Shown here one piece after another: positions 4,456 through 43,560 of a stretch of 64,000 nucleotides of DNA. Numbering within the stretch: the first letter of the stretch is position 1; every line of letters starts with the position of its first letter. The stretch lies in the NCBI GenBank assembly GCA_965644265.1, contig OZ286464.1, positions 13,268,001-13,332,000 of the forward strand. The letters run 5' to 3'. This stretch comes from Glycera tridactyla (taxonomy: Eukaryota). A program made the position numbers and the translations under genes. The notes under the pieces were generated by a model that was given only the letters and a program-made list of their open reading frames with translations, made no database searches and was not told where the DNA came from.

Positions 4456-4890
4456 ATGGCAGAAGACAGTATCATAGTTTGGTGCAAAAAACTCTCATCA
4501 GCAGCTGTGCTCCCCTTGAAATGCAGTGATGGGGCTGCAGGTTATGATGTTTTCACTCCTCGTGATGTTATAGTTGAACCTAAACAGCAGAGACAGATCA
4601 AATCAGATCTGGCTTTTGGTGGCATACCCAGAGATACTTATGCATATATTATGGGTAGGTCTGGCTTATCTAAGAAAGGTTTGCTGTTGATGTCAAATGT
4701 AATAGATTCAGATTATAGGGGTAATATTACCCTGAATATCATCAATTTGGGACCAAAAGCTATTGAGCTTAAGCAAGGCACTCGCATTGCACAGATCATT
4801 TTCCATAGAGTTGCTCTCCCTAAAATTGCTGAATGTGACATCTTGGATTCTACCACAAGAGGGGTGGGAGGTTTTGGGTCAACTGGGTAA
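4456..4890 (+). CDS. dut: dUTPase (trimeric family)
   Basis: All five motifs present: AAGYDV, GRSGLS, VIDSDYRG, RIAQII, RGVGGFGSTG. Confidence 0.96.
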   Translation: MAEDSIIVWCKKLSSAAVLPLKCSDGAAGYDVFTPRDVIVEPKQQRQIKSDLAFGGIPRDTYAYIMGRSGLSKKGLLLMSNVIDSDYRGNITLNIINLGPKAIELKQGTRIAQIIFHRVALPKIAECDILDSTTRGVGGFGSTG

Positions 4891-5428: not shown

Positions 5429-6052
5429 ATGGTTGATAATGGTCCTAAATTGAATCAGACAATTTTGATGGTCGTGTTACCAGTGACAGAAGTTTTTGTG
5501 GAGAAAATTCATGCAGATTATCCTGTTATATCTTCATATCATAGAGGTGCTGTGACTATAAAAGATGGGACAAGGTCATGGCGAATATTCAGGAAAGGAT
5601 CAGTCAAAATTCATGTTTTAGCAGATGTGTACTCATTCATTTCGAATTTTTATGTGAAGTCTCATAATATTTTACATCTTCTTACTAAATATTCCATCTT
5701 CAAGAATCAGCTCAAACCGCAAATCATAATTTCAAGTAAGAATTTCCAGTTCACCTATAAGTTTATTCCATACAATGTTGAGAATTGTGTTCAATCTATT
5801 TCAGCAATAATCAATAATTCTGGATATAGGTATTTCATGTCTAGAAGTGATTTGGTATATTTATATACCGAGGTGTCATACTGTGAATTAGATGGAACAT
5901 TCAAAGCCAGAGAAATCAATACACGTTCAGTTTTCACTTTCAATCGGTCTGGTCATTTATGTGCTGTTCTCACAACATTAGATGATTATCAGATTTTGGT
6001 TGACATAATCCGTGCTGTTAATTGTTATAAGCAAGATGAGATTCAATGCTGA
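5429..6052 (+). CDS. Hypothetical protein, possible TBP-like two-repeat fold
   Basis: Open ~207 aa from the first ATG. Two segments, GAVTIK..WRIFRKGSVKI and RSVFTFNRSGHL..helix, are spaced like the two TBP repeats; SSKNFQFTYKF resembles KIQNMVGSCDV. Confidence 0.45.
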   Translation: MVDNGPKLNQTILMVVLPVTEVFVEKIHADYPVISSYHRGAVTIKDGTRSWRIFRKGSVKIHVLADVYSFISNFYVKSHNILHLLTKYSIFKNQLKPQIIISSKNFQFTYKFIPYNVENCVQSISAIINNSGYRYFMSRSDLVYLYTEVSYCELDGTFKAREINTRSVFTFNRSGHLCAVLTTLDDYQILVDIIRAVNCYKQDEIQC

Positions 6053-7556
6053 ATCATTTTTTTCAGCAGTTGTGGAAGTTTTGAAGTCTGAAGATGCATT
6101 GACTGTGGTATTTTGGGATGGGGTTGGGGACGATGTTAATCATGTTTGGAATCCACATAAAAATGCTGATAAAGTGAAACTCAGATCAGTGATGATTTTA
6201 CACTTGATGAAGAGAAGGGAATTTCGGGCTGACTGCAAAGAGGATTTGGAAAAGATGGTTACTAAGAAAGAGGCAAAAAGACAGTTCCTCAAACGGTTGT
6301 TACGTGAGCTAGGAAATTTGTTACGGGTTAATTTTGAACTTAGATTTGATCAAGTGGGAAGAAAACCTATACATGTGACCAAGGAACCATCTTTATGGTC
6401 TGTTAGCCTTTGTGTGAATGGAGATGGTCTCGTTCATGTTAATCAGAAATCTCTCACTGGAGGACATGATCCCATAACTTCTCTCCCAGATGGGAGAAAA
6501 AATATCACGACTGTGGTTTCTGATACTCTGACCACTATGCCATGTATAAAAAAATCTGGGACTGAAATGGATTATTTTAGTATGCCCAACTTGTATGATG
6601 ATACGTTACCTGATTTATTTCAAGGTGGTAGTGGTATGCCTGTCAACACTACTCCCACTTCAGATCATATAGGTATCAGTAGCTATAGCATTATTTCTTC
6701 CACTGCAATGTCAACAATAGATCGAGGTGGCGGTGATGCGAATGTTACCACTACTGTCACTTCTGACCATTCAAGTATCAGTAGCTGTAGCATCATTTCC
6801 TCCACTGCAATCTCATCAATGGGAAGCACAGCAAAAACTTCCATATGTATTCCCAGAGATATGAATGCAAGGGAAGCAGTTGAACATGGAAATGTATGGA
6901 CCAATGTTCATCGAGAATTATCTCAACTTTCAGGTTTTGGTATGGGGAAAACTGTCACCTGCACAGTGACAGACACATTGAGTACTCCACGAATGAGTAC
7001 CAGTGAACTTTCATATTCATCTACTTCATCTCAACCAGAGATGAATTCATACCAACAAATGATGTATTTACCTCATATCCAAAATACCCACCCACAATTT
7101 TTCTGGCCATATAGACCCCCATTTATGCCATGGACGAGTGAATGGAGTGAAAACAGAGTGTGTATGGGTGTGGATCAAAAAAGTGTGAGCCAAGCAGATG
7201 TTGGAATGATAGCTGCAAGTGGAAGTGATGAAAGGATGCATGGCACCTTATTTACAGCTGGAGCAAATGGTAATACGGGGGAGGAGAATCAAGTTAAAAA
7301 CCAGACGAAAGGTCTGACTGAACAACCACAAGTTTCCCGGTCTGATTCTGCTCAGAGTACTGATGTTCAGGGTTTTTCAGATTCAGATCTGTCTTCAGAT
7401 GAAGAAAACACTATAAGTTCTGACCAGGCTTCAAAATTGTTGGAGTCACCAGTTGTTTTAGAAAAAAATTTAAGTCAAAATATGAAATTGCTCCAGGAAT
7501 TGGAACGTAGAAATCGAAAACGATCTTACAGTGAAGAACAGCTAGAGCAAATGTGA
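6036..7556 (+). CDS. Hypothetical ~506 aa protein with a globular N-terminus and Ser/Thr-rich low-complexity C-terminus
   Basis: Long intact ORF overlapping the previous stop. Internal repeat TSDHIGISSYSIISSTA / TSDHSSISSCSIISSTA; basic C-terminal RRNRKR. Confidence 0.75.
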   Translation: MRFNAESFFSAVVEVLKSEDALTVVFWDGVGDDVNHVWNPHKNADKVKLRSVMILHLMKRREFRADCKEDLEKMVTKKEAKRQFLKRLLRELGNLLRVNFELRFDQVGRKPIHVTKEPSLWSVSLCVNGDGLVHVNQKSLTGGHDPITSLPDGRKNITTVVSDTLTTMPCIKKSGTEMDYFSMPNLYDDTLPDLFQGGSGMPVNTTPTSDHIGISSYSIISSTAMSTIDRGGGDANVTTTVTSDHSSISSCSIISSTAISSMGSTAKTSICIPRDMNAREAVEHGNVWTNVHRELSQLSGFGMGKTVTCTVTDTLSTPRMSTSELSYSSTSSQPEMNSYQQMMYLPHIQNTHPQFFWPYRPPFMPWTSEWSENRVCMGVDQKSVSQADVGMIAASGSDERMHGTLFTAGANGNTGEENQVKNQTKGLTEQPQVSRSDSAQSTDVQGFSDSDLSSDEENTISSDQASKLLESPVVLEKNLSQNMKLLQELERRNRKRSYSEEQLEQM

Positions 7557-7725: not shown

Positions 7726-8446
7726 ATGAGTGACTTAGCATTATTGTTCAAGCGCCAAAAAAATCACTTGTTGATGAGGCCTGAGTTATATGTCCCTAAT
7801 AAGATTGGAACATATGTTGGCTTAAGAGCTCTGTTTTTGCCTCCACTGACTACTCATTTTATAGGTTGAAAAAGGAGCTTATGTTGAGGTACAGCTTCAT
7901 GATACTGAAAAAGTGTTTCGGATCCGGTTTCCACGGTCTTATGTCAAAACATTTGTTGAGATAGAAGAAATAATCAATGATAAGTTAGAAAGGGATGGCA
8001 TTTCACAATATTTTCAGTTTTAATATAGTTTAAATAAAAATAGATTTAAAATCAAAATGAGTGCTGATGCAGGAGCATATATCAGAATTCCTTCAGGATT
8101 AGCAAAAGATTTAGGATTTAGATCATCAGTAACTGTTTCAGCAACTATTCAAGCACCTGCTGAGCCTGTGTTTCGTCGGGATGAAGCCTTGTTAAATACC
8201 ATATATATACGCTGCAACATATGTGAATATTCACAGGTGAATGAATTTTTTGATAGATATTTGGGCATTCTTTCAATTGATCCTTCCCACAGAAATACTT
8301 TCTACTTTGAGAACCCTGTTTATAAACAGATTGCTTCTGAACTTGATTGCATCACACATATAACCATTGATTTATTGGATGGGGAAGATATAGTAATCAT
8401 GGGTTGGGAAAATATTGATGCAGAATTGTCCGTTATTCAAATGTGA
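7726..8446 (+). pseudogene. Second minor capsid (penton) paralogue, disrupted
   Basis: ATG 7726, frameshift at ~7864, in-frame TAA at 8021. The C-terminal part LNTIYIRCNICEYSQV..LGI..ENPVYKQI..ITHITIDLLDG aligns with the penton at 25507 (HLYIYCDILEYSLV..LLAV..QHPNYIKV..IESITIIITD). Confidence 0.7.
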
Positions 8447-8900
8447 GAGATAGGGAGTTGAGCATTGTGTTATCAGGGAATGAGCCAAAAGATGATGAAC
8501 AGATCGCAAATCCATTTTGCCTTCAGAATGGACCCTCTAGTCTTCATTTATTTCACAGAGTTTCATCTTCCATTTGGGAACCATTCATTTTACATACATC
8601 TCGATATAGCCTACATACTGCTTACAGGATATGACACAAACAAACAACTNNNNNNNNNNNNNNNNNNNNNNNNNNNNNNNNNNNNNNNNNNNNNNNNNNN
8701 NNNNNNNNNNNNNNNNNNNNNNNNNNNNNNNNNNNNNNNNNNNNNNNNNNNNNNNNNNNNNNNNNNNNNNNNNNNNNNNNNNNNNACAACCATCATTCTT
8801 TTTTTTCCTTTGATAGTTTCTTGGATGGCTGGTTGATTTACTATTTCAGGGGGGGGGGATACTGGAGCTTGAATTAGTTCATAGAGGTCAATGCCTGCCA
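8443..8900 (+). pseudogene. Possible third small penton-like gene, frameshifted and interrupted by the gap
   Basis: Segments ELSIVLSGN, VFIYFTEFHLP and SFYIHLDIAYILLTG resemble penton motifs FYVFLPSN, EVALTSIIYP and LYIYCDILEYSLVG. Confidence 0.3.
8650..8785. other. Assembly gap (N run)
   Basis: Run of N bases. Confidence 1.
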
Positions 8901-9877
8901 CAGGTAGATGGGAGTGTTGTTGTTTGGGCTGGAGGAAACCTTACAGCATTGCATCAATACCCTTAGATACCAAGACAAGAATTCTGATCTGGCAATAGAC
9001 AGGTTTTTTTTTTGTTTTTTTTTCCATGCAACCAGTGACATTAGGGATTCACACATAGGCTAGCAAACTTTGATAACATGTTTTCTTTAGCTATGGCTTG
9101 GGAAATTACCCTGATTGGAACCAGACTTCAACATGGCATATACCTGCTATTCATGATCGGTGTTGGGTGTTGTGAAATTTACTTTGCCAAGTGATAAAAG
9201 GGGATTCATCAAGGACATTCTATACCATGGAATGATGAGATGAATTACAACCTTGACACAGAGAATTTCAGGTTGCTGTGAGGAGATGAAGAATGGAATT
9301 CCCTGTTGCGCAATTCAATGCCATCACTATCTGTTTCTTTCATTGTTACAATTCTTTGATAGATGTTTACATTTTCAAACTTTGAGACAAACGCGCGTGA
9401 GACAATGGTTCCTTATAAATGAAGGGTATTATTAGTGTATGCAAACCTGTGTGTACCTGGAAACGGATTAGTATAAATCATTCAGTACCTACTATGTTTT
9501 TGCCCAAAGTGAATATCCAAACACATTTGTCCTTTTCTTGTCAGTGAAATCTCTTTAATCTGCTTGTTGAAGAAATCCTGTAATTAATCCTTGGTTGACT
9601 TGAAATTATTTGACCAGGTAGTACAAGGTGGTGATGGTGTGAGTTCATGTTTGGCACTAACTGAGAGCACACACAGTATGTAAATCATGAAGAGGGGTCT
9701 TCTGGGAGATACAGCAGGAAGGTTCTTATGGCTACACTGTTATGATGATTGCCAGTTGGTTGGAGAGGGGTGTTATTTTTATCTACAGTCTGCTCCACTA
9801 CAGTTTGTACCTCCACTGGGGGTCTTTATTCGACCATTGCATGTGATATATATATATATTCTTCATTTTCAGTCAGG

Positions 9878-10110
9878 TGGCTCACCTGGATGAGTCAGTG
9901 GTAGCGCACTAGGCTGGCTTGCAATGGGTCTTGGGTTCAATCCTCAGTCATACCATGCAGGAATGTTTCACCCATCATCTTTGCTCTCCTCGGCTGGTAG
10001 TTTGATTAAGCATACTCAAGTGCAGAAAGTGGACCCAAAACACTATTTAAAACCCACTATTGAGAATATTCAGCAATTTTTGTATGTTGGTTTGCCTACA
10101 TATTTTTCCA
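9878..10110 (+). mobile_element. tRNA-derived SINE-like element
   Basis: Pol III A-box-like TGAGTCAGTGG (9891) and B-box GGTTCAATCC (9934), preceded by (TA)n. The 3' limit is approximate. Confidence 0.6.
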
Positions 10111-11555
10111 TATTCATCTGAACTTATCCAGATTAGTTTTTTTTTTTTCTCCTTCTCTATGCTAAAGTGAGTGTAGAGCATGTCAAACATTGAAGATATA
10201 TGCAGTTTAGGAAGCTGGGAAGGACCTTGTTCACAGTTTTGATCTTGGGTGTGATGGCATCTATAACTTGTAATTGATGGGTTGGATGCATTTCATGGTC
10301 AGTTTCAAATATCAAGACAAATTGCTGGGCACAGAAAGGTACTTTCTTTGAGTAGGAGGCATAATTCTACAAATCAATGGTCGTGGCCTCCCCCGAATGC
10401 ACCCAGACATGACCAGATTGAATTTGTCAACCTTGTCTGTGGTGAGATGAATGCATATCATGTGTAATAAAAGCAATCAGTTGAAATTGAGAGATGAGAT
10501 TTTGGGTAGCAAGACAACTATGTGGACTTTTCTGAAAACTGAAATCATTGTGAAAATGAGCCCCACCTATATAGAATTTTTTCACTTCAAGACCATCCTT
10601 GTCAACCATCTAAAAATGCTTTGAATCTACTCTGGACTGATTCCTCTGCCTTCCCTCATGTGCCCTGAGTGCATTCCATGTCAAATAAAGAGGTCTGAGA
10701 GAGATTCATATCCTAGAGAGGCGAGATTTTTGTCAAATGATGATCATCCACATAGGGCTGATACTGACTGCACCCTGAAATGCTTTAAAACAGCTTGGTA
10801 TTGCCCACAAGGGTCTGTCTCAATTCTGGCTGGTATGAGGAGTCTGTTAAGACATAGATACAGTGCATTGATGCATGCTTGTGAACATGTGGGAAAAATA
10901 TGTTTCATCATAAAGCTGATTTTCCAGGTCACTTATGTTGACTTGTACTGAAACAAATTGTACAAATGGACTTACTTTCACAATGGACATAGAGACCATC
11001 TATCCATACGTTGATGCCTGGTTTGATACACCTCGGTGCATTTCAAATGTTTGAAATGAGACATCACAGCTGCAAATTATGGCCATTTTTTTACCACAAT
11101 TCCCAGTTGTTGTTTTTTTTTTCTTTTTTTTTTCTTTTCATTTCCCAATCAGTAGATTGATTTGATGGTTTCTGATGTCATTCATCATGGAACCATTGTT
11201 TAGAGATACATTATCTATTTTCATGAACCTTGCTATTCCCCCCCCCTCCCCCTATTTCTTGTGGTCCCTTGGAAATTCTGCAAGGGAAACCACCGGAGTC
11301 TGGTACTCTGAGTTACACAAGGTACAACAATGAGTTTCATTCAGATATAAGTAGTGGCATCCAATCATGGGTACTTGCATTTATATTGACCCCCTCCCCC
11401 CATGAGTATTGCTGATGTTGAATGCAACTAACTAATAGAGCTCTGATACAATATGTCATCCAGGAGCAATTGGTGTGCACAAATCAGACTAGACTAGCAG
11501 GCAACCTATCTGAAATACTGATGTATTCCCAACTAGTATCCAATAAACTTCCACT

Positions 11556-12477
11556 CATGGTGAATCTATGGTAAGATATCCAAATCATAACAGAATAACA
11601 TCCCATCATTATTCTTCAGGTTGTTCTCCAGGGAATGTACTGTTCTCTTTTCTTGACGTTGGAAGTTAAAATGTAAGGTGCTAGCAGCTAATGGGGCTCA
11701 CAGCAATCTGTTGCCCTATACCCCTACCCAGGTGGCTGCTGCCACCTTGTGTTACCTTTTTTAACACTATGTGGCAGCAGGCACAGGAGCTCCATGGTTC
11801 ATGATGGGGGAATTCAGACACTAGATGGTAGCAACTATTGGAGGTTCATCATCATCTGAAGAGCTATACACCAAACCAGGGGCTGCTGCCCCCTGTGTTG
11901 ATTTTTTGTAGTGGTACTTCATCATTGTACACTATGTGGCAGCAGCCACTAGAACTACATGGAAATCTGCTGGTCTATACCCCAAATGACTGGTTACCGT
12001 CTCCATGTAGCAACAAACATGGTGAATCTATGGTAAGATATCCAAATCATAACAGAATAACATCCCATCATTATTCTTCAGGTTGTTCTCCAGGGAATGT
12101 ACTGTTCTCTTTTCTTGACGTTGGAAGTTAAAATGTAAGGTGCTAGCAGCTAATGGGGGCTCACAGCAATCTGTTGCCCTATACCCCTACCCAGAAGGCT
12201 GCTGCCACCTTGTGTTACCTTTTTAACACTATGTGGCAGCAGGCACAGGAGCTCCATGGTTCATGATGGGGGAATTCAGACACTAGATGGTAGCAACTAT
12301 TGGAGGTTCATCATCATCTGAAGAGCTATACACCAAACCAGGGGCTGCTGCCCCCCTGTGTTGATTTTTTGTAGTGGTACTTCATCATTGTACACTATGT
12401 GGCAGCAGCCACTAGAACTACATGGAAATCTGCTGGTCTATACCCCAAATGACTGGTTACTGTCTCCATGTAGCAAC
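11556..12477 (+). repeat. Near-identical tandem duplication, 462 bp unit
   Basis: CATGGTGAATCTATGGTAAGATATCC starts at 11556 and 12018; internal subrepeats such as ACACTATGTGGCAGCAG. Confidence 0.95.
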
Positions 12478-13155
12478 TGCTGGGATGAGACAGAATCATT
12501 GATACTATCCTATCCCAATTGTTGACTGGTTAACAGCTGCTATAATAAGCCATCTCTACGACCCAAATTTAGGCTAGACAGAGTGCTAAGCTGTGCTCAC
12601 CAGTAAGCTTGCTTACTGGTATGATGGTTTGGTTGATTGAGTGCATACATAATTGTATTATATCTATCTCAATAGCATGAGAACTGGATATACCTAGTTT
12701 GAAGCCATACTCTAGCCTGAGTCTTGCTGTTAGATTGTTTGTTCATCACCTGCTGGAATGGTTTGCAGATTTCACTTATGATTACCTCAGGTTTATTGTT
12801 ATCCCTTGAATTATAGTAATTTGACTGTTTTGGGTTACTGATTAGGCTGTACATATTATCTAATATCTAGTTAATCAGAATTGGTTGATTGGTTGCTGTC
12901 TCATGTTCTATGAGACTGCATGGGAGATATCACACAAGACTGATCCTTCTTGGTGCCAAATGAGAAACGTACAACACATCTGCTTCATGGGAATATCTGT
13001 CTGGGTGTCAGTTTGTGTGTGTTTTTCTGTGGTTGTGTGCACAAATTAGTTGGTTCTCTAAATGAAACTCACTGAGGTTTCTTGATCATAAGTTCTGGTA
13101 AGCTTTTGAAGAAAGTCTGTTAGAAATAGTGTGCAAAAATTCATGAAAGAGAGAA

Positions 13156-16698: not shown

Positions 16699-16963
16699 TA
16701 CATATACATCATGCACCCACACAAACATCTGTGAGGCCAGGGCTGTAGGAGATGCAAATTATATCCCTTTCAGAGGTGTTTGCTTAATGTGATTTTTGTC
16801 ACTTAGGCATTTTTAATGCATATTTGCATGGTATAATTATGACATGGATTGCTGATAAAACTTCCTGAGATTCAGTGAGAAGTGCAGATCTCATCAGCCT
16901 CTCAAGTTCAACATTAATCGGAGTGGTATTGAAAAATCATTTTGAGATAGATAAGAGGTGAGT

Positions 16964-17242
16964 ATGACTTACAATAAGAAGAATGTTGTTTTTGACCTGA
17001 GTGAAAGTAAACAGCTTGTTATAGGTGTATTCAAAGAGCATATATATTTACACTTGAAAGACAGAAGAAAGTTTAAATTTGTTACTCTGAATCTTAATGA
17101 ATTCAAACATTTAGTTAAGAAGTTGCCAAAGATAAAGCATGTCATAGCTAAGACTTCTGCACATTTAAAAAAAGAAAACGAAAAGGATGAGGAAAAATCA
17201 GAATTAGAATCTGAATCTGAGGAAGAAGAGATGTGGATGTAG
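16964..17242 (+). CDS. PC4/Sub1-like ssDNA-binding protein with acidic tail
   Basis: FDLSESKQLVIGVFKEHIYLHLKD..FVTLNLNEFKHL matches the PC4 pattern FDL..R.V.V..FKG..YIDIR..GISL..EQW..L. Confidence 0.7.
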   Translation: MTYNKKNVVFDLSESKQLVIGVFKEHIYLHLKDRRKFKFVTLNLNEFKHLVKKLPKIKHVIAKTSAHLKKENEKDEEKSELESESEEEEMWM

Positions 17243-17494: not shown

Positions 17495-18379
17495 GATCAT
17501 GAACTTCATGATTTGAAAGTAGTAGGGGAACTACTCGCAATAGCAGTCTTTCTTTTTTTTTTTTTTTTTTTTAGAGAATGATGAGTGCACATGTTGTGTC
17601 TGAGATGATGAATATTACGATGAGTTACTAGTACAGTATCTTCCTCAATGTGCTACAAATTTTGTGCCTTTTTTCCCTGTGTGGGATCCGGGACCTTCAA
17701 CTGATTGTTTGAAGGAGTAGAATAGTCCAATGTATTATCTGCATGTTGTAAAAGGCGACTAAAAGGTATTTTGTTTGCAGTGTTTGCATGTTATATGTGA
17801 TTAATAACTGGCTCCCCATAGATCTATCAGTTTTTTGTTCATGGTTATTGGCTCATTATGGTATTGTGTCAGTGTTCCTTTTGTTTTTGGTTATTCTTAT
17901 CAAAATAATGATTTGAGGAAGTGGCAGGTCTATCAGTTATATTAGTTATTAGTCTGGTGAATGGATTTCTTGTTCTGAGTTTGATTTTGAGATTGTCTAG
18001 ATCAATAAAAGAGGACAATGTTCTAGCTGTGGTGGTGGTGGTTGAACATAATTTGACAGTCAGTTGTTCACTTACGAATGTCAAATTTAGGGTCCATACT
18101 TCATCAAAGATGGTCATTGAGGAGAGAAAATCAAATTTCACATGATTCTGAATATATATCCACAGGAAACTTACATACCAATCATCACAAGAATCCGAAA
18201 GGAATTATAGGGGACACTGATATCAGTGCTCCATTCTGTTAAGTACCTATTAACTCTAGTAGTGAGTGATGATGAAATTACTTATTATTTTCATTATAGT
18301 GCGGAACATATCCTTGCTGAGATCAAGACTTTTCAAATCTCATATCACAGATGTTTGATTTTTCTACAATACATGAAAA

Positions 18380-19060: not shown

Positions 19061-19207
19061 GTCACATGATAACATGTATGGGAACATGATAAATGTATAT
19101 TATTTACAAAATTGCTAAGTACAGCCTCATCTTACTTCTAATTGTACCTGAGATAGCAAAGGTCATTGGATAGCTTTACTGCATATTGAAATTTATTGAA
19201 ATTCATA

Positions 19208-21814: not shown

Positions 21815-22795
21815 ATGCCTGCGAAAATCCGAAGTAAGCGAGTGTTGTACAATATTTTGAGGTCGCTGTATACTGATCCCAAATATCCCTCTAGTTACAA
21901 CTCTCCTAGAAGATTAAAGAAACATCTGGATGATGAGAAGACTATTTCTATAACTTTGACAGAAGTTCAAGACTACTTGAGTAATTTACCCTCTTATACT
22001 CTGCATAGACCCATACGCCGTAAATTCAAGCGTCGTTTAACAAAAGTATATGGCATCCATATTCAACATCAGTGTGATTTGATGGATTTTCAGACACTTG
22101 CTAAGTACAACAACCACTTCAAATATGTTTTAATTGCAGTGGATGTATTTTCACGTTTCATGTTTGCTAGACCATTATTAAACAAAAAACCAGAGACTGT
22201 TGTCAGAGCTTTCCAACAGATGTATGAGAAAGGGGCAAAACCTAAAATAATACAGACTGATGATGGGTCTGAGTTTATTGCAAGGTATACTCAAAACTAT
22301 TTCAGGAGAGAATTCATCAAACATTTCACAACAAGCAGTGATACAAAGTCTGCTTTGGTGGAGAGAGCAATCAGAACATTGAAGGCAAGAATATTCAGGT
22401 ATTTCACACATAACAATACAAAAACTTGGTTCAATGTCTTGCATATTTTTGTTGATAGTTATAATAAATCTTATCACAGATCTATTAAAATGTCCCCAAG
22501 TGAAGTCAATAAGAGTAATGAAGGTGAAGTATGGGTGAATTCATACAATCAACTATTTTCAATCAAAAGGACTCAAAATTATTTTCATGAAGGAGATGTT
22601 GTGAGGATAACCCTATTGAGTAAACAGTTCAAAAAAGGATATATCAGAGGTTGGACAACAGAGATGTTTGTAATTGATGAGGTATTGAATACCTATCCAC
22701 TAACATATAAGTTGCGAGATATGAATTCAGAAGTATTAAAAGGAACTTTTTACAAAGAAGAATTATTAAAGGTGAGAAATATGATCATTGACTAG
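21815..22795 (+). CDS. int: Retroviral-like (rve, DDE) integrase of Maverick type
   Basis: QCDLMD, IQTDDGSEF, LVERAIRTLK; C-terminal GDVVRI..FKKGY..WT.E..KGTFYKEEL. Confidence 0.96.
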   Translation: MPAKIRSKRVLYNILRSLYTDPKYPSSYNSPRRLKKHLDDEKTISITLTEVQDYLSNLPSYTLHRPIRRKFKRRLTKVYGIHIQHQCDLMDFQTLAKYNNHFKYVLIAVDVFSRFMFARPLLNKKPETVVRAFQQMYEKGAKPKIIQTDDGSEFIARYTQNYFRREFIKHFTTSSDTKSALVERAIRTLKARIFRYFTHNNTKTWFNVLHIFVDSYNKSYHRSIKMSPSEVNKSNEGEVWVNSYNQLFSIKRTQNYFHEGDVVRITLLSKQFKKGYIRGWTTEMFVIDEVLNTYPLTYKLRDMNSEVLKGTFYKEELLKVRNMIID

Positions 22796-23317
22796 GAACT
22801 CATAGATCTATCTGTACCATTTGTCCCTCAAATTTTGTTTTCCCTGAACTGAAGTGTATATGTGTATGTATATCCATGTGTTTTGCATTTTCAGCTTACA
22901 AGAACCACACCATTGACAATTTGTTCATCGGATATACTATGTGGCGCTTATGCAATCAAGTTTATGCATGATTGCTATGCTTATGTGTGGTATGCTGCTT
23001 TTCAAACATGTGCATTTGATCCTAAAAAGCACTCCCTGGATTTTGATCTTGAATGCTTGCAAAAGCATCTGTGTCTCGGAATGTTGTGCTTTTTGCATGA
23101 TTATATGTGTTTATTCATGCTGAGTTATTCACATGCACTTATAATTTGCTGGTGGCATGTAAATCTGATTGTCTGCAAGAGTAAGTCATGTTCCTAGAGG
23201 TATGGGTGTATTGATCTGTGAGCTTGCAGTTTGCCTGTTAAAAGTTACATGTATCTTCATCAGATATGAGATTTAAGCTATTGATGGGAATTACAGGATT
23301 AGCTTCGTGTAAAAATT

Positions 23318-23975
23318 ATGAGTAGGCAAAAAGATTCAGAGAATTTGGAATATGCATTTGATGCCAGGTTCAAGACACCATTCAGATTACTGGTTGTTGG
23401 ACCTACTTTGTCTGGAAAGACAACATTTGTTTTGAATATGTTGAAAAATGTGGATAGACTTCTGGATGCACAAATAACCAACCTGGTATGGTGTTATGGG
23501 ATACAAATCCCCCCAGAATGTGAGACTAACACATTTTGTCCATGATATTCCCACCGATCTGGTTGAAACATATATTCAAAGTGGTGAAATAAATTTGCTT
23601 ATCCTTGACGATCTCATGGAAGAAGCTCTGAAGAGCAAATTATTTGCAGATATATTGACAAAATATAGCCACCATATGAATATTAGTGTTATTCTCATCA
23701 TGCAAGATTTTTATTATGATGGCAGATACCGGAAACTTATCCAAAGAAATGTTAATTATTTGACATTTTTTGACTCCCCACTTGACCAATCACAAATATA
23801 TGGAATGGCCAAGAAAATATCACCCAAAAGTGAGAAGGTATTCATTGAGATCTATAAAAAGGCTATAAAAGATCATGGATACATATTTATTGATGGTCAC
23901 AGAGATACACCTAAACAAGCAATGTTCAGATCTAATATTTTTGATTTAGGACAAAAAGTATATTGCTTATCATAA
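23318..23975 (+). pseudogene. DNA packaging ATPase (A32/FtsK-like), split by one frameshift
   Basis: Walker A GPTLSGKT in one frame; Walker B LLILDDL and SHHMNISVILIMQ in the next. The shift is at the C6 run, 23509-23514. Confidence 0.92.
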
Positions 23976-26816: not shown

Positions 26817-27176
26817 GTCAAATTGACTTTGCATTTGTGAGTGTATTACAGAGTTAGTCTTCTGAATGACTTCTTTTTGAATTGATTATGCTGCCCTGAG
26901 CAGACTGAACAGACTAATATCCATGATACATTTCTAGTGACAGTGTGCTGATTATTGTCTTTATTCTACTAATTGTATTCTACTAATTGTATTCCAATAA
27001 CAATCCACCACCTGAGTATTGTCTAGTTGCTTTTTTTTTTCTGATAGACCCATCCAATTGACACCTAGGACCTTGTGGATGAGATTTTCAGGAACTTTTG
27101 GTTCTTGCTCTATTCATATCACAGTCCTTTTATAACATTCTCTTTATTTTTGGTATCCAATAACAAACTATTCATC

Positions 27177-28523
27177 ATGAGTGGTTCAGATGTTGCTTGT
27201 TTGAAAAGTGAATTAGATTTATTCAAACAACAGAAGATTCAAGTAGCATTTAAGTCTGGGAAGTACATAAAAATAGATCCACAAACAAGTATTGATAGTA
27301 CAAATACATTGGAATTTAGACTTTCTACAGCTGGTCATTATTACCGGATAGGAGGAGCTGTTTTGTTTCTTGAGCTGAAAATTCTTGATGGGAATGATGA
27401 GGCTATAAATTTAACATCTTCCACAACTGCTGATTCCACAACTTATACTGGAGAACTTGTATATCCTGTAAACTATCTTGTTGCCTCTTGTTTCAAAGGG
27501 GTGGAAGTACAGATCAATTCAACTATTGTTAACAAAACAAACAATCTTTACCCCTATAGGGCATATTTAGAAGCCCTTTTGAGCTATAGTCCTGAAGCAT
27601 TCAATACTCATTTACGTGCAGGATTGTTTGTCAAAGATCAAGATAATTTTGATTATGTTGATAAAGACTTGTTCAATGATGAAGAGAAAAATAATGGAGC
27701 ATATGAGAGATGGCCTGCAGTGAAGGGCAGCAAATCCTTCCAAGTATTTGGTCGTATTCATTCAGAGATTTTTTCACAGGATAAAGCTTTGCCATCAGAC
27801 ACTGAAATTAGAATACGTCTTTATAAGCACAATCCTGAATTCTTCTTGATGTCTTCAAGCAAGAGCATAAAACCGAAGCTAGTTATAGAAGAGGCTGTTC
27901 TGTACATTCCACAGATGGATGTAGCACCATCTGTTGTTGAGGCCCACAAGTATGCGATCAGTAAGAATATTCCTATTGTCTATCCTGTGACAGGAGTTGA
28001 AGTTGTCCATTTCACACATGCTGTTGGCAAATCAGACCTATCCGAGCCCACAGTGTTTCAAGGAAAATTGCCAAATAGTGTAGTCAAAACACTTGTTTCG
28101 AGTGCAGCTTTTAATGGAGATTACAGTAAGAACCCATTTTCGTTTCAACACAATAATGTCAGGAGCATCTCATTACGAGTTGATGGAATTGCCAAGCCAA
28201 TAGATGAATTGAGAATGAAATATGATGAAGAAAAGTATATGATGGCATATTTATCACTTTTAGAGGCATGCGATTCCCTATTTTCAAATACACCAGTGAA
28301 TATTTCACCATATGAGTTTGCATCAGGTTACGCTATATATGCATTTGATTTGACTGCAGATTTGAATGCTTGTGCTCCACACCGATCCCCTAATCAGGTC
28401 GGAAAGATTGGCGTTGATATCAGATTGGATAAATCTACAACAGAGAGTCTAGTGGTATTAGCATATGCCGAATATTCGTCAGCTATATATCTGAAAGGGA
28501 ATGAATGTGAATATACTTTATAA
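27177..28523 (+). CDS. Major capsid protein (double jelly roll)
   Basis: CLKSELDLF..Q N-terminus, YPYRAYLEALLSY, KNPFSF, YAFDLT; ATG at 27177, 448 aa. Confidence 0.92.
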   Translation: MSGSDVACLKSELDLFKQQKIQVAFKSGKYIKIDPQTSIDSTNTLEFRLSTAGHYYRIGGAVLFLELKILDGNDEAINLTSSTTADSTTYTGELVYPVNYLVASCFKGVEVQINSTIVNKTNNLYPYRAYLEALLSYSPEAFNTHLRAGLFVKDQDNFDYVDKDLFNDEEKNNGAYERWPAVKGSKSFQVFGRIHSEIFSQDKALPSDTEIRIRLYKHNPEFFLMSSSKSIKPKLVIEEAVLYIPQMDVAPSVVEAHKYAISKNIPIVYPVTGVEVVHFTHAVGKSDLSEPTVFQGKLPNSVVKTLVSSAAFNGDYSKNPFSFQHNNVRSISLRVDGIAKPIDELRMKYDEEKYMMAYLSLLEACDSLFSNTPVNISPYEFASGYAIYAFDLTADLNACAPHRSPNQVGKIGVDIRLDKSTTESLVVLAYAEYSSAIYLKGNECEYTL

Positions 28524-28542: not shown

Positions 28543-29022
28543 ATGAATACTGAAGACCTAAAGTACTTCATAGGTAAGGTCACTCACCCAGATTATTTTC
28601 AGGGGGTCTTTTCCTCAGATTCTCTACCACGAAAAAAAGAAAATGGTATATATATCTGCAATACTGCCAATGCATTCAATAAGGGCATCCATTGGATTGG
28701 ACTCTTTGTGCATGAACAGAAGCATAATGAGTATTTTGATAGTTTGAATGGGCCAATATCATATGAATTTGAAGAATTTCTCAATTTCGAATATGAACGT
28801 AGCACAAGAGCTTTGCAATTTCCTTTGTCAACTACATGCGGTGGTTGGGTATTATATTATTCAATTGCTAAGTCATTGGGATATAAGCTATCTGAGATTG
28901 AGCAAGATTTCACTCATGATACACTGCTGAATGACTACCTTCTCCGGTGGTTCCTTCACAACTTCTTTGGACAGGAGATATTACATGTGTTTGATCTTGA
29001 CTTCATTGAGTCGGTATTTTGA
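28543..29022 (+). CDS. Adenain-like cysteine protease
   Basis: Catalytic residues in GIHW, EYFDS and LQ..STTCG. Confidence 0.95.
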   Translation: MNTEDLKYFIGKVTHPDYFQGVFSSDSLPRKKENGIYICNTANAFNKGIHWIGLFVHEQKHNEYFDSLNGPISYEFEEFLNFEYERSTRALQFPLSTTCGGWVLYYSIAKSLGYKLSEIEQDFTHDTLLNDYLLRWFLHNFFGQEILHVFDLDFIESVF

Positions 29023-29560: not shown

Positions 29561-29639
29561 AGTTGTTGTTCTAAAAGATGTCAGTCGGTAATGCAATATA
29601 AGAACAATTGGTCACTGCTTACTACAATGAGTATCCAGC

Positions 29640-31050
29640 TCATTGGTACTTTTTTCTGAAATATCATCACACTTTACTGCATCTATGTTCTGAAAAATTA
29701 TGAGACTTTACTACATTTATGTTCTGAAATATGATCACACTTTACTGCATCTATAAGATGTGAGCTTGATTGATGTGTAAAGACAAGTGGCTCATTGCTA
29801 CTGAGAGTCGACCATTGCCAATGCTTAGTACATACTGCTGAGTAGCATATTGACATAGCTTTTTGGATTATCAAAGTTTCTTTACATTTTGATGACAATT
29901 TGCATAGAGTAGCTCATTGCTACTTTGTTCTGAAATATTATCACACTTCACTGCATCCATGCAATGTGAACTTCATTGGCTCATCGTCAATGTAAACAAA
30001 GTTTCTTTACATTTTGATGACAATTTGCATAGAGTAGCTCATTGCTACTTTGTTCTTAAATATTATCACACTTCACTGCATCTATGCAATGTGAACTTGA
30101 TTAGCCGATCCTCAATGTAAACTTGAGTGGCTCATTGTCACAGAAAGTTGACTATTGTCAATGGATTATCAAAGTTTCGTCATATTCTGATGACAATTTG
30201 CATAGAGTAGCTCATTGCTACTTCATTCAGAAATATTATCACACTTCACTGCATCTATGCAATGTGAACATGATTGGCTCATCGTCAATGTAAACAAAGT
30301 TTCTTTACATTTTGATGACAATTTGCATAGAGTAGCTCATTGCTACTTTGTTCTGAAATATTATCACACTTCACTGCATCTATGCAATGTGAACTTGATT
30401 AGCCGATCCTCAATGTAAACTTGAGTGGCTCATTGTCACAGAAAGTTGACTATTGTCAATGGATTATCAAAGTTTCGTTATATTTTGATGACAATTTGCA
30501 TAGAGTAGCTCATTGCTACTTCATTCAGAAATATTATCACACTTCACTGCATCTATGCAATGTGAACATGATTGGCTCATCATCGATGTAAACTTGAGTG
30601 GCTCATTGTCACCTTTACTGCATCTATGAGATGTGGACTTGATTGTCTCATCACTGATGTGATTGTGAGTGGCTCATTGTCACAGAAAGTTGACCATTGT
30701 CAATGCTAGCACATAGCATTGATTTTATCAAAGATTTTTCAGATTCTTTACCTGAATATGATGGAGTAGCTCATCGCTACTTTGTTCTAAAATATCATCA
30801 CACTTCACTGCATCTATAGGAATTGAGTAGCATTTTGACACAGCTATTTGGATTATCAAAGCTTCTCCTTCCTAACACAATATGCATAGAGTAGCTCATT
30901 GCTGCTTTTTTTTTTCATATATTATCACGCTTCTGCATCTATTGTTCTGAAATTTTCCACTTTACTGCATCTATGAGAATATGATTAGTGTATAAAAACA
31001 AGTAGCCCATTGCTACTGAGGGTTGCTCATTGCCAATGGATTCGATTTCA
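29640..31050. repeat. Satellite with ~298 bp higher-order unit (alternating ~124 and ~174 bp monomers)
   Basis: GATGACAATTTGCATAGAGTAGCTCATTGCTACTT recurs; near-identical short ORFs at 29917 and 30215 lie 298 bp apart; edges degenerate. Confidence 0.9.
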
Positions 31051-31439
31051 TAAAACCTTCTTTGCATTCTTGCCACAGTATTCAGTGGCTCATACTATGT
31101 TCTGAAGTCATGCATAAATCATAGCTCATGATCAAGAAGATTCACTGAACACATTGTTGCATTTCATGTATTAGTGCTGTGTGGGATTTACCATTTATTA
31201 GAAAATGTATTGACCTGATAAATATAAAAAAAAAATGCAACAAAAAGAAAGAAAGAATACCCTCACTATTCTTTCAGAATGTATGAATAATGTATCCTCC
31301 TCTCATAAGATTTCACACAATTCCCATAATATATACACACATACAGGTGTTTCTCCTTCCTGATTATTCATGTATTTGATTCTGTTCCAGGACTTTTAAA
31401 CTTTGTGTTTATCTGTACTATGAATGTGAAGTGTGTTAT

Positions 31440-32530
31440 AGTTGATTTTGATGAAATCACCTTCAGGGCATTTTATCTTCACCTCTGGGACAACATCATC
31501 ATGGCTGGTGTCCGTGGACTGTGAAATTCTACCATGTACAACATGTCAAACAAAATAACAGTGCATGCAGAGTCTGCCTTCCATTTCCACTCAAGGACTT
31601 CTGGCATAGTGAGTCGTTATGACGTGTGCTATATCTGATTTTGATACAAACCTTTGCATTTATCTCCATTTCTAGCTCAACATCATTACAGCTGGTCTCT
31701 GTGAACTGTGAAATCCTCCAATGTGCAACATGTTGAGCTGGGGCATGAACAGTCTGAGCAGACAAAGAACTAAGTATTGGTGCGTGCAAATCTGCCTTCC
31801 ATCTCCACTCAAGGACTTCTGGGATGGTGACTATTCATGGGCTGTGTGACATTTATTTTGATTCAAACCTCTGCATTTGCCTCCACTACTAGAGCCAATA
31901 TCAATACGGCTGGTGTCTGTGAACTGTCCCTCCCCCATGTGCTACATGTCATGCTGGGACATGGACAGACTGAGCAGATAATAGAGTAGTGGTGCATGCA
32001 GAGTCTGCCTACCATCTCCACTGAAGGATTTCTGTGATGGTGACTAGCTATGACGTGTGTGTCATTTGATTTTGATACAAACCTCTGGATTTACCTTCAC
32101 TTCTAGAGCGCGATCAATATGGCTGGAGTCTGTGAACTGCGAAATTTCCCATATGTGCAACATGTTGAGCTGGGGCGTGGACAGCAAACATAGTAGTGGT
32201 GCATATATCTCCACTCAAGGACTTCTAGGATAGTGACTATTCATGATGTTATATGATTCTGATACAACCTCCTGGATTCACCTTCACTTTTAGAGCAACA
32301 TCATTACGGCGGTAGTCAGTGAACTGTGATATTCCTCCCATGTGCAACATGTCGAGCTGGGGTGTGGACAGACTGAGCAAAGTCGTGGTGCATGCATAAT
32401 CTGCCTTCCATCTCCACACAAGGATTTCTGGGATAGTGACTATATATGATATGTGTGATGTTTGATTTTGATGCAAACCTCGGGATTTATCTTCATTTCT
32501 GGAGCAACGTCATCACAGCTGGGATAGTGG
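31440..32530. repeat. Degenerate ~190-215 bp tandem array, about 6 units
   Basis: Recurrent CTTCTAGAGC..ATCA..ACGGCTGG..TCTGTGAACTG and CCACTCAAGGACTTCT blocks. Confidence 0.8.
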
Positions 32531-33060
32531 TGCTGTGCCCCACATGGTCTACTTTTATCATCATTCAGAGTTGTATCACATCATTACACATTGGAATTAC
32601 GATAACTCCAGGACTGATTAGAGAAAACGGATGTCATTTTATCTGAATCTTGTATGATGCACTTCACATTCACTTTCTTATTGTTCTGCACTTTTGCTTA
32701 TTGTTTGATAAAAAAAAGTTTTCTGCATGAAAAATAAAAAGTTGGAAAAAAAAAAAAAAATGGGAGAGATGGTATCAGTTACCTTCTTTTTTGCGCCAGC
32801 TTAAAATAAGGTAACTACGGCTTTCATTCTATATGTACATGGGCTTATTGTTTGTTTTTTTCCAGTGGAATACATTTATCCCAGTGAAAATTCAGTGAGG
32901 GTTTTTTCACTGGATGGTGTATTCAGGTGTGGTTATGGTATGTCTTTGAGTGACTGTATGTGAGAGTGAGTGTGTGTATTTTTGAGTGTGTGTGTGTGTT
33001 TATGCATCATGTATGTCTCAGAGATTTCAGCTCTCGATTTCTACTTAATTTTAAGCCCAA

Positions 33061-34720
33061 TACCTCCCTCTCCCCTGGGCATCAGCTCTCAGCCTTTGGT
33101 GTATATCTATATAAGTACCTAGGCTCAGAGTGGTGTCCTACCGGGGATTGGGTTGACTTTCAACAAAAAAGGGCTAGAAGATGAATCACTGGGCAGAAGA
33201 GATTGTTACGAGAGCGATGGATCAAGTGAATGTGGAAGAAGAGATGGAGACAGATGGATGACTACTGAGAAGTTTGAAGAAGAATGCAGGACACAAAATA
33301 CAGTAGGATGACCACGGCATTCATACATTACAGAGAAGTTTGACCAAGTATAGTGGGAATTACCAAGATATTCATGAATCACAGTGAAGTCTGAATATGA
33401 AGAATGCAGTCACTAAGTATATTAGAATCACCAAGGCATTCATGTATCAAGAGCCTGCCTAGTATTGTGCATTTTGTCAGCATGTTATTTTGTTTGTTTG
33501 AAGTTTAACGGCATGTATTTGTCAGCATGTGGATAATTTGTACATTAACCTGCATGTTTGATATGATCAATATTCAAACTCCTAGTAGATAAGTATGACA
33601 AACCAATAGGCTTTACCCTATATCATCCCGATGTGTTTTGAACATTCTTGTAGTTCTAGCTGTTTTACCAGATTCGAGCCCATTACCTCCCTCTCCCCTG
33701 GGCATCAGCTCTCAGCCTTTGGTGTATATATATATAAGTACCTAGGCTCAGAGTGGTGTCCTACCGGGGATTGGGTTGACTTTCAACAAAAAAGGGCTAG
33801 AAGATGAATCACTTGGAGAGGAGAGATCTGTGACAAGAGCAATGGAACGAGTGAATATGGAAGAAGAGATGAAGACAGATGGATGACAACTGAGAAGTTT
33901 GAAGAAGAATGCGGCGGCAAAATACAGTGGGATCACCACAGCATTCATACATTACAGAGGGATTACCACAGCATTCATACATTACAGAGAAGTTTGACCA
34001 AGTATAGTAGGATTACCAAGATATTCATGAATCACAGAGAAGTCTGAATATGAAGAATGCAGTCGCCAAGTATATTAGAATCACCAAGGCACTCACGTAT
34101 TAAGAGCATGCCTAGTATTGTGCATTTTGTCAGCATGTGACTAATTTGTACATTAACCTGCATGTTTGATATGATTGGATGACTACAGAGAAGTTCAAAG
34201 ATGAAGAATGTGGTCACAAAATACAGTAGGATTACCAAGACATTCATACATTACAGAGAAGTTTGACCGAGTATAGTAGGATTACTGAGATATTCATGGA
34301 TCACAGAGAAGTTTGAATAAGGAGAATGCAGTCACCAAGTATAGCGGTCCACACAATCTTGAAACATTCATAAAGGCAGGTGTTCAGAGGTCTCTTGATG
34401 TTAGTTGATCACATTCCTGTTAAACTTAAAGCCTTCAGGAAACATATGGCACCAAATCATGATGGAGCTAGAGAGTATTATGATTTGATAACCAAATCAT
34501 CATTATTATGAGTATTATGAGATGACTCAAAGTACACCTTCACAAGCATTACCAAGACATTAACGTATCACAAATATCACAAATGTCTATTGTTGTGCAT
34601 TTTGTCAACATGTGAACAATTTGTGCATTAACCAGCAAGTTTGATATATTTAATATTCATACCCCTAATAGGCAAGTATAACAAACCAATGGCTTTCACC
34701 CTGCATCATCTTGATATACT
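33061..34720. repeat. 623 bp tandem duplication with internal AAGAATGCAGTC../CATTACAGAGAAGTTTG subrepeats
   Basis: TACCTCCCTCTCCCCTGGGCATCAGC at 33061 and 33684; partial third copy near 34600. Confidence 0.85.
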
Positions 34721-34899
34721 TTTTTGCATATACAGTTGTTTCACCATACACTACAAGCCTATCACAACGGGGACTCGAGCTACACTGCATTATTGAGTCC
34801 CCGTTGTGATAGGCGTCACCTACTACTGCTAATGATCAATGGATACCAGCTGCATAGGTCAGATCCGGCAAAATGTGTGGTGAAGCAATTATTATTCAT

Positions 34900-42400: not shown

Positions 42401-43560
42401 TGTTTCTTTCAGCAATCTTTCCTTTTCTAACCTATTTGCTTCAGACAGACAGCACCTAAATTTCTCACTTGCTTTCTCACGTAATCGTACCTCATCCAAA
42501 TAATGGCCTGTCATCCACTCTGGGCATTGCTCTCTTACACGATATCTACGTGGAGGTATCTGCCGGTTCACCACTCCACTGATACATTCAAAAATCAATT
42601 GAGTACATTCATCGACTGACAAAAAATCATTATTCATCACACTCGTCCAATCATAGCTCCGCAGTTGTTCATTTATGGCATCATAATCTGCACGCTTGAA
42701 ATTGCGTAGGTAGATATATTTACTTTTCTTGTTTTGTCTTTCTTTCTTACGGGTCGTGAATATCATTGCATGATCAGAAAGACCTAGGTCCACGACACCC
42801 GCCATGTGGTATTGTTCTTTATTGGATACGTAGATATGATCTATATTTGTTTCACTTTGTGAGGTGACTCTAGTATACTTATTCATCATTTGTGATAGGT
42901 GATTTGCATAGCAAAAATTTTTGACAATAGTCTTATTTGGGGTCTCCTTTGACAGGTCTATATTGTCATCTCCTAAAATAATGAAATCACAGATCCCAAG
43001 TCCGGAGATATCCAGTAGCTTGTTGTCTAATATATCAGAGGCAAATTTCTGGTTTCCTTTTGGAGGACGATACAGTCCGCAGATATATGTCGGGCGAGTG
43101 TGAGGCAGGTGTAGCTTTACCCATATACATTCGACATCATTATTACAAATTGTCCATTCGGGGATGAATTCAACCATAGAATCTGAGCAATAATAGATTA
43201 GAAGTCCTCCTCCGCCTCTTAATCCAGCCCCTCCATCTCGGTCTGAACGGATCATTTTATAACCAGGGATTGATAGTTCGTTCGAAGTAATTGAGGAATT
43301 TAGGAAAGTTTCTCCCAATACTAAGATACTTAAATTACTATCTCTCAGGAGAACTTCGATGTCAATTAGTTTGCAAGTGACACTTCTTATATTCAAGTAT
43401 GCCATACTTATACCATTTAATGCACGCAAATCTTTGGCACAGGTCACCTGGCCAATGGTGTCTGGTTTGATTCTTGGAATCTCTTGTGGGAGGCGGTCAT
43501 TTTTCAGAGGCAGGTTTGGACTTCCATTTCGACAAATGGCGATATTTGCTTGTACATTTG
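39435..43560 (-). pseudogene. LINE ORF2: AP endonuclease plus reverse transcriptase
   Basis: APE: LNIRS, GETFL, YRPP, GDDNID, IDHIY, SDH. RT: YRPMSLL, QSGFR, LDLRKAFDTV, GVPQGSILGP, YADD. One frameshift at ~42.3 kb, a stop at 41839, and the duplication. Confidence 0.95.
40029..41973. repeat. 970 bp tandem duplication inside the RT
   Basis: Apparently identical ORFs at 40087 and 41057; GGAAA microhomology at 40029, 40999 and 41969. Confidence 0.95.

Follow-up and report, generated by a model that had tools for sequence, protein, structure and literature searches.

A Maverick element of Glycera tridactyla encodes a TBP-like protein with one predicted TBP lobe and carries a clade-specific word upstream of its genes

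Results

The Maverick element and its genes

The window, a stretch of 64,000 nucleotides from the genome of Glycera tridactyla (contig OZ286464.1, positions 13,268,001 to 13,332,000), contains a Maverick/Polinton element with the gene set polymerase B, rve integrase, A32 ATPase, capsid and protease. The following features were assigned; positions are those of the window.

1-34827, plus strand: Maverick/Polinton element, 35,023 bp overall, starting 196 bp left of the window, with the ends AGTAGTAG...CTACTACT
4456-4890, plus strand: dUTPase (Pfam PF00692, E 8.6e-33)
5429-6052, plus strand: TBP-like ORF (TBPL), 207 aa; residues ~10-91 predicted lobe 1, ~98-206 putative lobe 2
6036-7556, plus strand: ORF2, 506 aa, overlapping TBPL by 17 nt; no family found
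8057-8446, plus strand: ORF3, 129 aa, corresponding to the C-terminal half of ORF3 in relatives, where it has 253-286 aa
13156-16698, plus strand: presumed family B DNA polymerase (similarity across elements, motifs), 51-53 % identical across the TBPL clade
16964-17242, plus strand: weakly PC4-like ORF, 92 aa
18380-19060, plus strand: deoxynucleoside kinase (Pfam PF01712, E 5.6e-23)
21815-22795, plus strand: rve integrase (Pfam PF00665, E 1e-11)
23318-23975, plus strand: A32-type packaging ATPase (Pfam)
27177-28523, plus strand: presumed major capsid protein (Maverick gene order, motifs), conserved in all elements read
28543-29022, plus strand: presumed cysteine protease (gene order, motifs)

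The labels of the polymerase, capsid and protease genes rest partly on motifs which we take to be diagnostic, and the polymerase may be protein-primed, as the Maverick context suggests. The first-pass annotation had described the frame at 5429-6052 as a candidate TBP-fold protein encoded by a Polinton. The frame exists, the quoted peptides are present in its translation, and the Maverick setting was borne out by the element genes and ends. Target duplications of 6 bp were present at the window element (GCTAAT), at the C4 copy (AGCATT) and in family B (ACCATG). The terminal inverted repeat of family A was short and imperfect. AGT-repeat termini were present at the Maverick ends, and a passage of PMC8097293 describes this AGT motif for Mavericks. 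The Pfam-scanned ORFs of the window included neither an RNA polymerase gene nor a gene for a TFIIB-like partner.

Directly behind TBPL, the N-terminal ~150 aa of ORF2 were conserved in all four lineages read (19-21 % identity); this part had no Pfam and no PDB match, and an OTU-like reading of it, made by eye, found no confirmation. In the window copy the ATPase gene is broken up into two reading frames. Long stretches of the element without large ORFs (8450-13150 and 29600-34800) are common to its copies and contain internal direct repeats, ~460 nt at 11556-12477 and ~300-nt units at 29864-30612. A second Maverick family of the TBPL clade (G000:C4:55532212-55566021, L020-L024; 33.8 kb) contains dUTPase-like genes and paralogues of the last ORF, two of each. 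Outside the element, the minus strand at 39435-43405 carries fragments labelled by eye as LINE-like reverse transcriptase and endonuclease, in part duplicated.

Copies, relatives and selection of TBPL

In the host genome (2.04 Gb, 207 contigs), six places including the window encode TBPL at 98-100 % identity. Three further places, belonging to family B, encode a protein 34-35 % identical to that of the window, and degraded fragments are also present. At C51:78.70-78.72 Mb (L010-L019) such fragments recur every ~2.65 kb, as if a part of the element had become a tandem array. The search for homologues in other Mavericks, suggested as a check in the first-pass annotation, was successful: proteins with 30-34 % identity were found in the same gene cassette. 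The gene order TBPL-ORF2-ORF3-polymerase is common to the lineages A, B, L082 and L083, and the PC4-like and kinase genes come next wherever the DNA extends far enough; elements A and B were read whole, L082 to L084 are partial elements.

Outside the host genome the TBPL family is small. Two real matches were obtained among 1.84 billion representatives, a profile search yielded three relatives, metagenomes contributed three loci, and scans of IMG/VR were without relatives of either TBPL or the Maverick TBPs. A third database match (P0006) was discarded as spurious, because it is a long repeat protein. In every pair of TBPL genes that can be judged dN was smaller than dS, with dN/dS of 0.015/0.111 (B7/B8), 0.018/0.076 and 0.026/0.072 for pairs of family B and 0.135/0.328 for L082/L083. 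TBPL is a real gene under selection.

Sequence comparison with TBP

By its sequence, TBPL is not a formal member of PF00352. The profile match to TBP proposed as a check was not obtained at a significant level with Pfam, PDB or hhalign. Against Pfam only DUF6018 appeared, under the cut-off, with no TBP match; against the PDB no TBP was matched by sequence or by profile. TBPL was absent from the 150 scored PF00352 matches of the genome, and a six-frame scan was also without a match. Alignment with hhalign was not significant for 12 Maverick TBPs (P 0.061) and for 132 TBPs (P 0.028), and with the 132-TBP profile the window protein was no better than shuffles, 215 of 423 reported shuffles scoring as high. 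A weak signal was present between the first half of TBPL and TBP repeat 1, reached by 3 of 300 shuffles and located on the IF..G turn. For the second half, neither TBP repeat gave a match in sequence, the score being reached by 229-259 of 300 shuffles.

The two modules of the protein had been described as internally similar, each with the motif I-F-x-x-G-x-V/L. The similarity did not hold, with 38 of 300 column shuffles reaching the score; real TBP repeats give a z of 37. The motif fits module 1 (WRIFRKGSVKI), but module 2 (VFTFNRSGHL) reads T-F-x-x-x-G, and its T-F-N-R-S-G is one residue longer before the Gly and lacks the Ile. In the proposed Asn-containing strand before the second module (SSKNFQF), N105 was invariant in 8/8 aligned rows, and the length of ~200 aa agrees with the TBP core.

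Predicted structure and key residues

The AlphaFold model of TBPL, built from a four-row alignment, had a mean pLDDT of 46, with ~50-78 over residues 11-100 and below 50 for residues 102-207. Residues 11-100 are arranged in the order strand-helix-four strands-helix. Foldseek against the PDB yielded 25 matches at E<=0.001 (best 9.6e-5), and among the matches listed to rank 39 all were TBP or TBP-containing chains; the whole-chain TM was only ~0.33, because the second half of TBPL is not folded in the model. Superposition of residues 10-90 on a TBP lobe with VIA gave a Z of 8.4 and an rmsd of 1.8 Å over 76 residues, and the identity to TBP in structural alignments was 13-18 %. In a search of 48,161 chains made without Foldseek, TBPs occupied ranks 1-3 (Z 8.1, 7.3, 7.3), ahead of PA4090 (6.8), and RNase HIII/AlkA-type single-lobe folds ranked low; over this and the VIA comparison the best non-TBP chain had a Z of 6.8-6.9, and for this tool a Z of ~8 is within the range of a possibly common arrangement. 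In a viral structure library, Marseillevirus TFIID and a Heterosigma virus TBP were among the top six. A single-sequence model, too poor to use (pLDDT 35.5), had an archaeal TBP in first rank at a non-significant E of 0.067.

The Foldseek, VIA, 48,161-chain and viral-library matches make lobe 1 well supported as a prediction, and with high confidence the modelled TBPL has a TBP-type lobe 1. Of the TBP fold claimed at first, the part at residues 10-103 thus stood in the predicted model and the structure search, but a two-lobe saddle is not seen in the model because of the pLDDT below 50 over residues 102-207. Length, the predicted order of helices and strands and the invariant N105 point to a putative lobe 2, and TBPL is probably a two-lobed TBP homologue. 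Alternatively, TBPL could be an alpha/beta domain that is not homologous to TBP and resembles TBP lobes only in a common arrangement of sheet and helices. The absence of a significant sequence or profile link would agree with such a domain, as would the mean pLDDT of 46 and a Z of ~8 compared to 6.8-6.9 for PA4090. Yet TBPs were first in four structure searches with the TBPL model family and named viral TBPs were among the top rows of a fifth, the weak sequence signal coincided with the IF..G turn of TBP repeat 1 (3/300 shuffles), and length and secondary-structure order fit two lobes. We give this alternative little credence.

The VIA superposition starts with TBPL residue 10 on yeast residue 159, and the mapping beyond was made by eye with what we take to be the residue numbering of yeast TBP. 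F54 and G57 are invariant in 8/8 TBPL rows and align with the IF..G turn of TBP in hhalign. According to PMC7221094, the Phe at this turn is the key DNA signature; F54 corresponds to this Phe of lobe 1, located at loop L5.1 (F116 in yeast). By eye, F54 is the only one of the four DNA-kinking Phe clearly kept, the invariant Arg52 lies two residues before it on strand 4, the first stirrup is shortened, and F171 is displaced by one position from where it would be expected, the register of lobe 2 not being fixed by the model. The putative stirrup 2, also assigned by eye, has acidic residues in the relatives and few in the window protein, in which the TFIIB-binding E-P-E loop was not recognisable by eye.

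Canonical TBPs in Mavericks of the same genome

A search of the genome with PF00352 yielded at least 150 matches over the cut-off, a count from 288 candidates of which 150 were scored, with some loci counted twice and about three rows resembling host exons. Twenty of these loci were chosen for variety (among L027-L080): at 19 of them, Maverick genes for integrase, ATPase or capsid were at most 5 kb away, and the remaining one is the presumed host TBP gene. In four canonical loci of 40 kb the TBP gene sits between ATPase and integrase. One canonical Maverick TBP matched PDB TBPs at an E of 1e-17. In 12/12 canonical Maverick TBPs the E-P-E loop was invariant and the first Phe position was occupied by Met; the Asn was also kept. 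In a midpoint-rooted tree (alignment A4, 56 of 132 rows used) these 12 proteins and 18 database proteins formed one branch apart from cellular TBPs (support 100/99), with the assigned group labels of P0028, P0031 and P0071 disagreeing with their placement. TBPL was left out of the tree because it is unalignable.

The two protein types were not found together: elements A and B, read whole, contain no canonical TBP, and TBPL was absent from 4/4 canonical-TBP loci. The polymerase type differs as well, with 1,170-1,180 aa in the TBPL clade versus ~1,700 aa in the canonical-TBP clade. Common descent of TBPL and the canonical Maverick TBPs had no significant support (hhalign P 0.061).

Words upstream of the genes

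Upstream windows were defined as the 150 nt before the start codon and covered 12 % of the bases in a pool of the lineages A, B and L083. The word TGAGAT, first spotted by eye in upstream regions and then tested on the same data with no held-out lineage, had 19 of its 46 sites in these windows (P 5.6e-7, the top of all hexamers; P ~0.002 after correction for 4096 words). The lineages contributed 8/26 (A), 8/16 (B) and 3/4 (L083) upstream sites. L082 was kept out of the pool because it is close to L083; alone it had 1/4 sites upstream, which is not significant. None of 2000 rotations reached 19 upstream sites, and windows placed further upstream or inside genes contained 6, 4 and 5 sites. No site was an annotated stop codon, other TGA-words were upstream in 11.8 %, and the opposite strand had 3/34. 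The excess persisted separately within non-coding (P 7e-4) and coding DNA (P 0.007). The word preceded 7/20 genes in A, 8/22 in B and 3/9 in L083. Before TBPL itself no TGAGAT was present within 150 nt in any of the four lineages. In the window element the following sites were located.

7957-7962, plus strand: TGAGAT, 100 nt before ORF3
16866-16871, plus strand: TGAGAT, 98 nt before the PC4-like ORF, and again at 16943, at a distance of 21 nt
18318-18323, plus strand: TGAGAT, 62 nt before the kinase gene
19149-19154, plus strand: TGAGAT, 59 nt before ORF 19208
23267-23272, plus strand: TGAGAT, 51 nt before the ATPase gene
27080-27085, plus strand: TGAGAT, 97 nt before the major capsid gene
28893-28898, plus strand: TGAGAT, within the protease gene; the last ORF, whose start is uncertain, begins 38-74 nt further on

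With a single automatic ORF rule, TGAGAT was upstream in 22/46 cases in the TBPL clade versus 5/44 in nine canonical-TBP loci, and CATAGG in 0/12 versus 30/57. For the main canonical-TBP clade (L046-L057, L062, L074, L076, L077), CATAGG(A) was upstream in 30/57 cases (P 4.7e-11); this word can alternatively be read as a splice acceptor (YAG/G). In a third subclade CATAAG ranked first with 10/17 (P 3.7e-4), a value that fails the correction for 4096 words. TGAGAT is not TATA-like. TATAWA had no upstream enrichment in either clade, and in the TBPL elements TATA was upstream of ORFs in 10/81 cases, without enrichment. A promoter-like minimum distance between word and start codon was not significant, 5/22 and 3/30 sites lying at less than 34 nt. 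Homologous TGAGAT sites cannot count as independent. Two clades, and hence two data points, connect TBP type with word, so that the association could arise from shared ancestry alone. The sequence GGTATAAGT was observed ~25-30 nt before the dUTPase start in the window and ~60 nt before TBPL in family B; it is possibly a host-type TATA box for early genes.

Discussion

The predicted TBP-like lobe together with the enrichment of TGAGAT before genes indicates that the element likely brings its own switch-on factor. TBPL is a new, profile-invisible variant of the viral TBP mimics in Mavericks, TBP-like by one predicted lobe. In its full form, the reading is that TBPL represents a highly diverged two-lobed viral TBP which steers host RNA polymerase II via TGAGAT, and to this we assign about even chances. 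TBPL would be made first, early in expression, from a host-type promoter, since TGAGAT is absent before TBPL in 4/4 lineages. It may bind TGAGAT-containing DNA through a remodelled saddle and, following the model of herpesvirus ORF24, would recruit host polymerase II to the genes for replication, packaging and capsid; use of the host polymerase is suggested because the scanned ORFs include no RNA polymerase gene. The word is tied to TBPL by correlation, and TBPL is its putative reader. The transcription-steering module of its own, with which the element had been tentatively credited on the basis of TBPL and the PC4-like ORF, gained the clade-specific upstream word TGAGAT, but its PC4 part is weak.

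A TBP-derived TBPL need not be a promoter reader. It could act as decoy or modulator of the partners of host TBP, and TGAGAT would be read by a host factor or a helper virus. Virophage promoter motifs are recognised by the helper virus. The DNA-facing residues of TBPL appear eroded: in the mapping by eye a single Phe is clearly retained, and strand 4 carries the invariant Arg52. Promoter motifs are a subject of virophage and PLV papers. The signature Phe F54 is kept, however, and the upstream word changes together with the TBP type between clades of one host genome, in which both clades meet the same host factors. TGAGAT is also not a GATA-factor site, because the next base is A in only 6/22 sites. 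A decoy role appears rather unlikely to us.

For the PC4-like neighbour, the first-pass label proved the weak point. ORF 16964 had no match to Pfam PC4 (PF02229), its family B relative (52 % identical) reached an E of 0.0033 with 17.3 bits, below the cut-off of 25, and no PC4 structure was among the PDB sequence matches for the PC4-like ORF. Next to a polymerase, a protein of PC4 fold could just as well serve to bind single strands. Canonical-TBP Mavericks (L059:7100-7528; L048, L057, L084) carry PC4-like ORFs in the left or right element arm, and one of the four tested had a Pfam PC4 match at E 1.1e-7. In 10/10 places that contain the PC4-like relative, a TBPL match was also nearby. This association, and the position of TBPL in a conserved block with polymerase, PC4-like ORF, kinase and dUTPase, would suit a TBP fold reused for replication, as a DNA- or single-strand-binding accessory of the polymerase cassette instead of a transcription factor. 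A precedent is given in PMC12209930, the divergent TBP of Giardia, which is devoid of key Phe and binds single-stranded DNA. Such an accessory leaves unexplained both the clade-specific upstream words and the absence of TBPL from canonical-TBP elements, and we regard it as quite improbable.

Returning to TBPL as a diverged viral TBP, the protein resembles cellular and archaeal TBPs (PF00352; PDB 3eik, 1ytb, 1ais) in the predicted fold of lobe 1, the size of ~200 aa, the signature Phe-x-x-Gly turn and the Asn at the start of the putative lobe 2. It differs from them in its invisibility to Pfam and profiles, and, by eye, in the other Phe and the E-P-E loop, which are not evident. TBPL and the canonical Maverick TBPs reside in Mavericks of one host and have an own upstream word per clade. 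The canonical proteins lie between ATPase and integrase, keep the E-P-E loop and go with CATAGG, whereas TBPL precedes another type of polymerase and is accompanied by TGAGAT. Other viral TBP folds that have diverged strongly are Marseillevirus TFIID, the 26.1 kDa protein of ascovirus and, in the part of PMC12917281 concerned with them, the poxvirus proteins VETF-l and VITF-3l. Passages of PMC7221094 state that Nucleocytoviricota with TBP-like proteins have their own RNA polymerase and most of them a TFIIB-like partner; in contrast, the Pfam scan of window ORFs was without such genes.

The functional model for TBPL is ORF24 of KSHV, the herpesvirus vTBP, which passages of PMC12529657 present as the TBP mimic of a nuclear DNA virus that steers host polymerase II towards the promoters of the virus. 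ORF24 has extra DNA- and polymerase-binding parts and viral partners, unlike TBPL, which is a bare core. A label 'TBP' appears in the legends of genome maps of MELD virus and adintovirus (PMC8502044, Fig. 5; preprint 10.1101/697771), noting a TBP-like gene for some adintovirus-like element; it is a legend entry in a section on non-animal data sets, and the passages concerned hold no mechanism or promoter analysis. Beyond this adintovirus label, no description of mini-TBPs in animal Mavericks was found in full-text searches of openly accessible papers. TBP and TATA are absent from the main texts of PMC8097293, PMC11071308, PMC10748475, 10.64898/2026.06.19.733378 and 10.64898/2026.10.13.758929, whose supplementary gene tables could list TBP genes; the main text of PMC11131425 has no TATA and a TBP count of 0.

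The observations bear on the transcription of integrated Mavericks and on whether their viral genes follow a regulated programme. Given a small TBP-fold factor encoded by the element and its putative target of six letters, these questions become accessible to experiments with a single purified protein and short pieces of promoter DNA. If the reading is true, the TBP-mimic strategy of herpesviruses would extend to a 35-kb element without an own RNA polymerase, and a TBP fold would read a non-TATA word. Profile-based annotation would miss such genes, and a naive TBP search in a genome of this kind would mostly bring up Maverick genes. Tentatively, and with less confidence than for the steering of polymerase II itself, animal Mavericks may run private TBP-promoter codes, in which different TBP-fold factors in one host each have their own word (CATAGG, perhaps CATAAG, TGAGAT); TBPL would have drifted past sequence recognition and switched to a non-TATA word, which would insulate the programme of its genes against both host and rival Mavericks.
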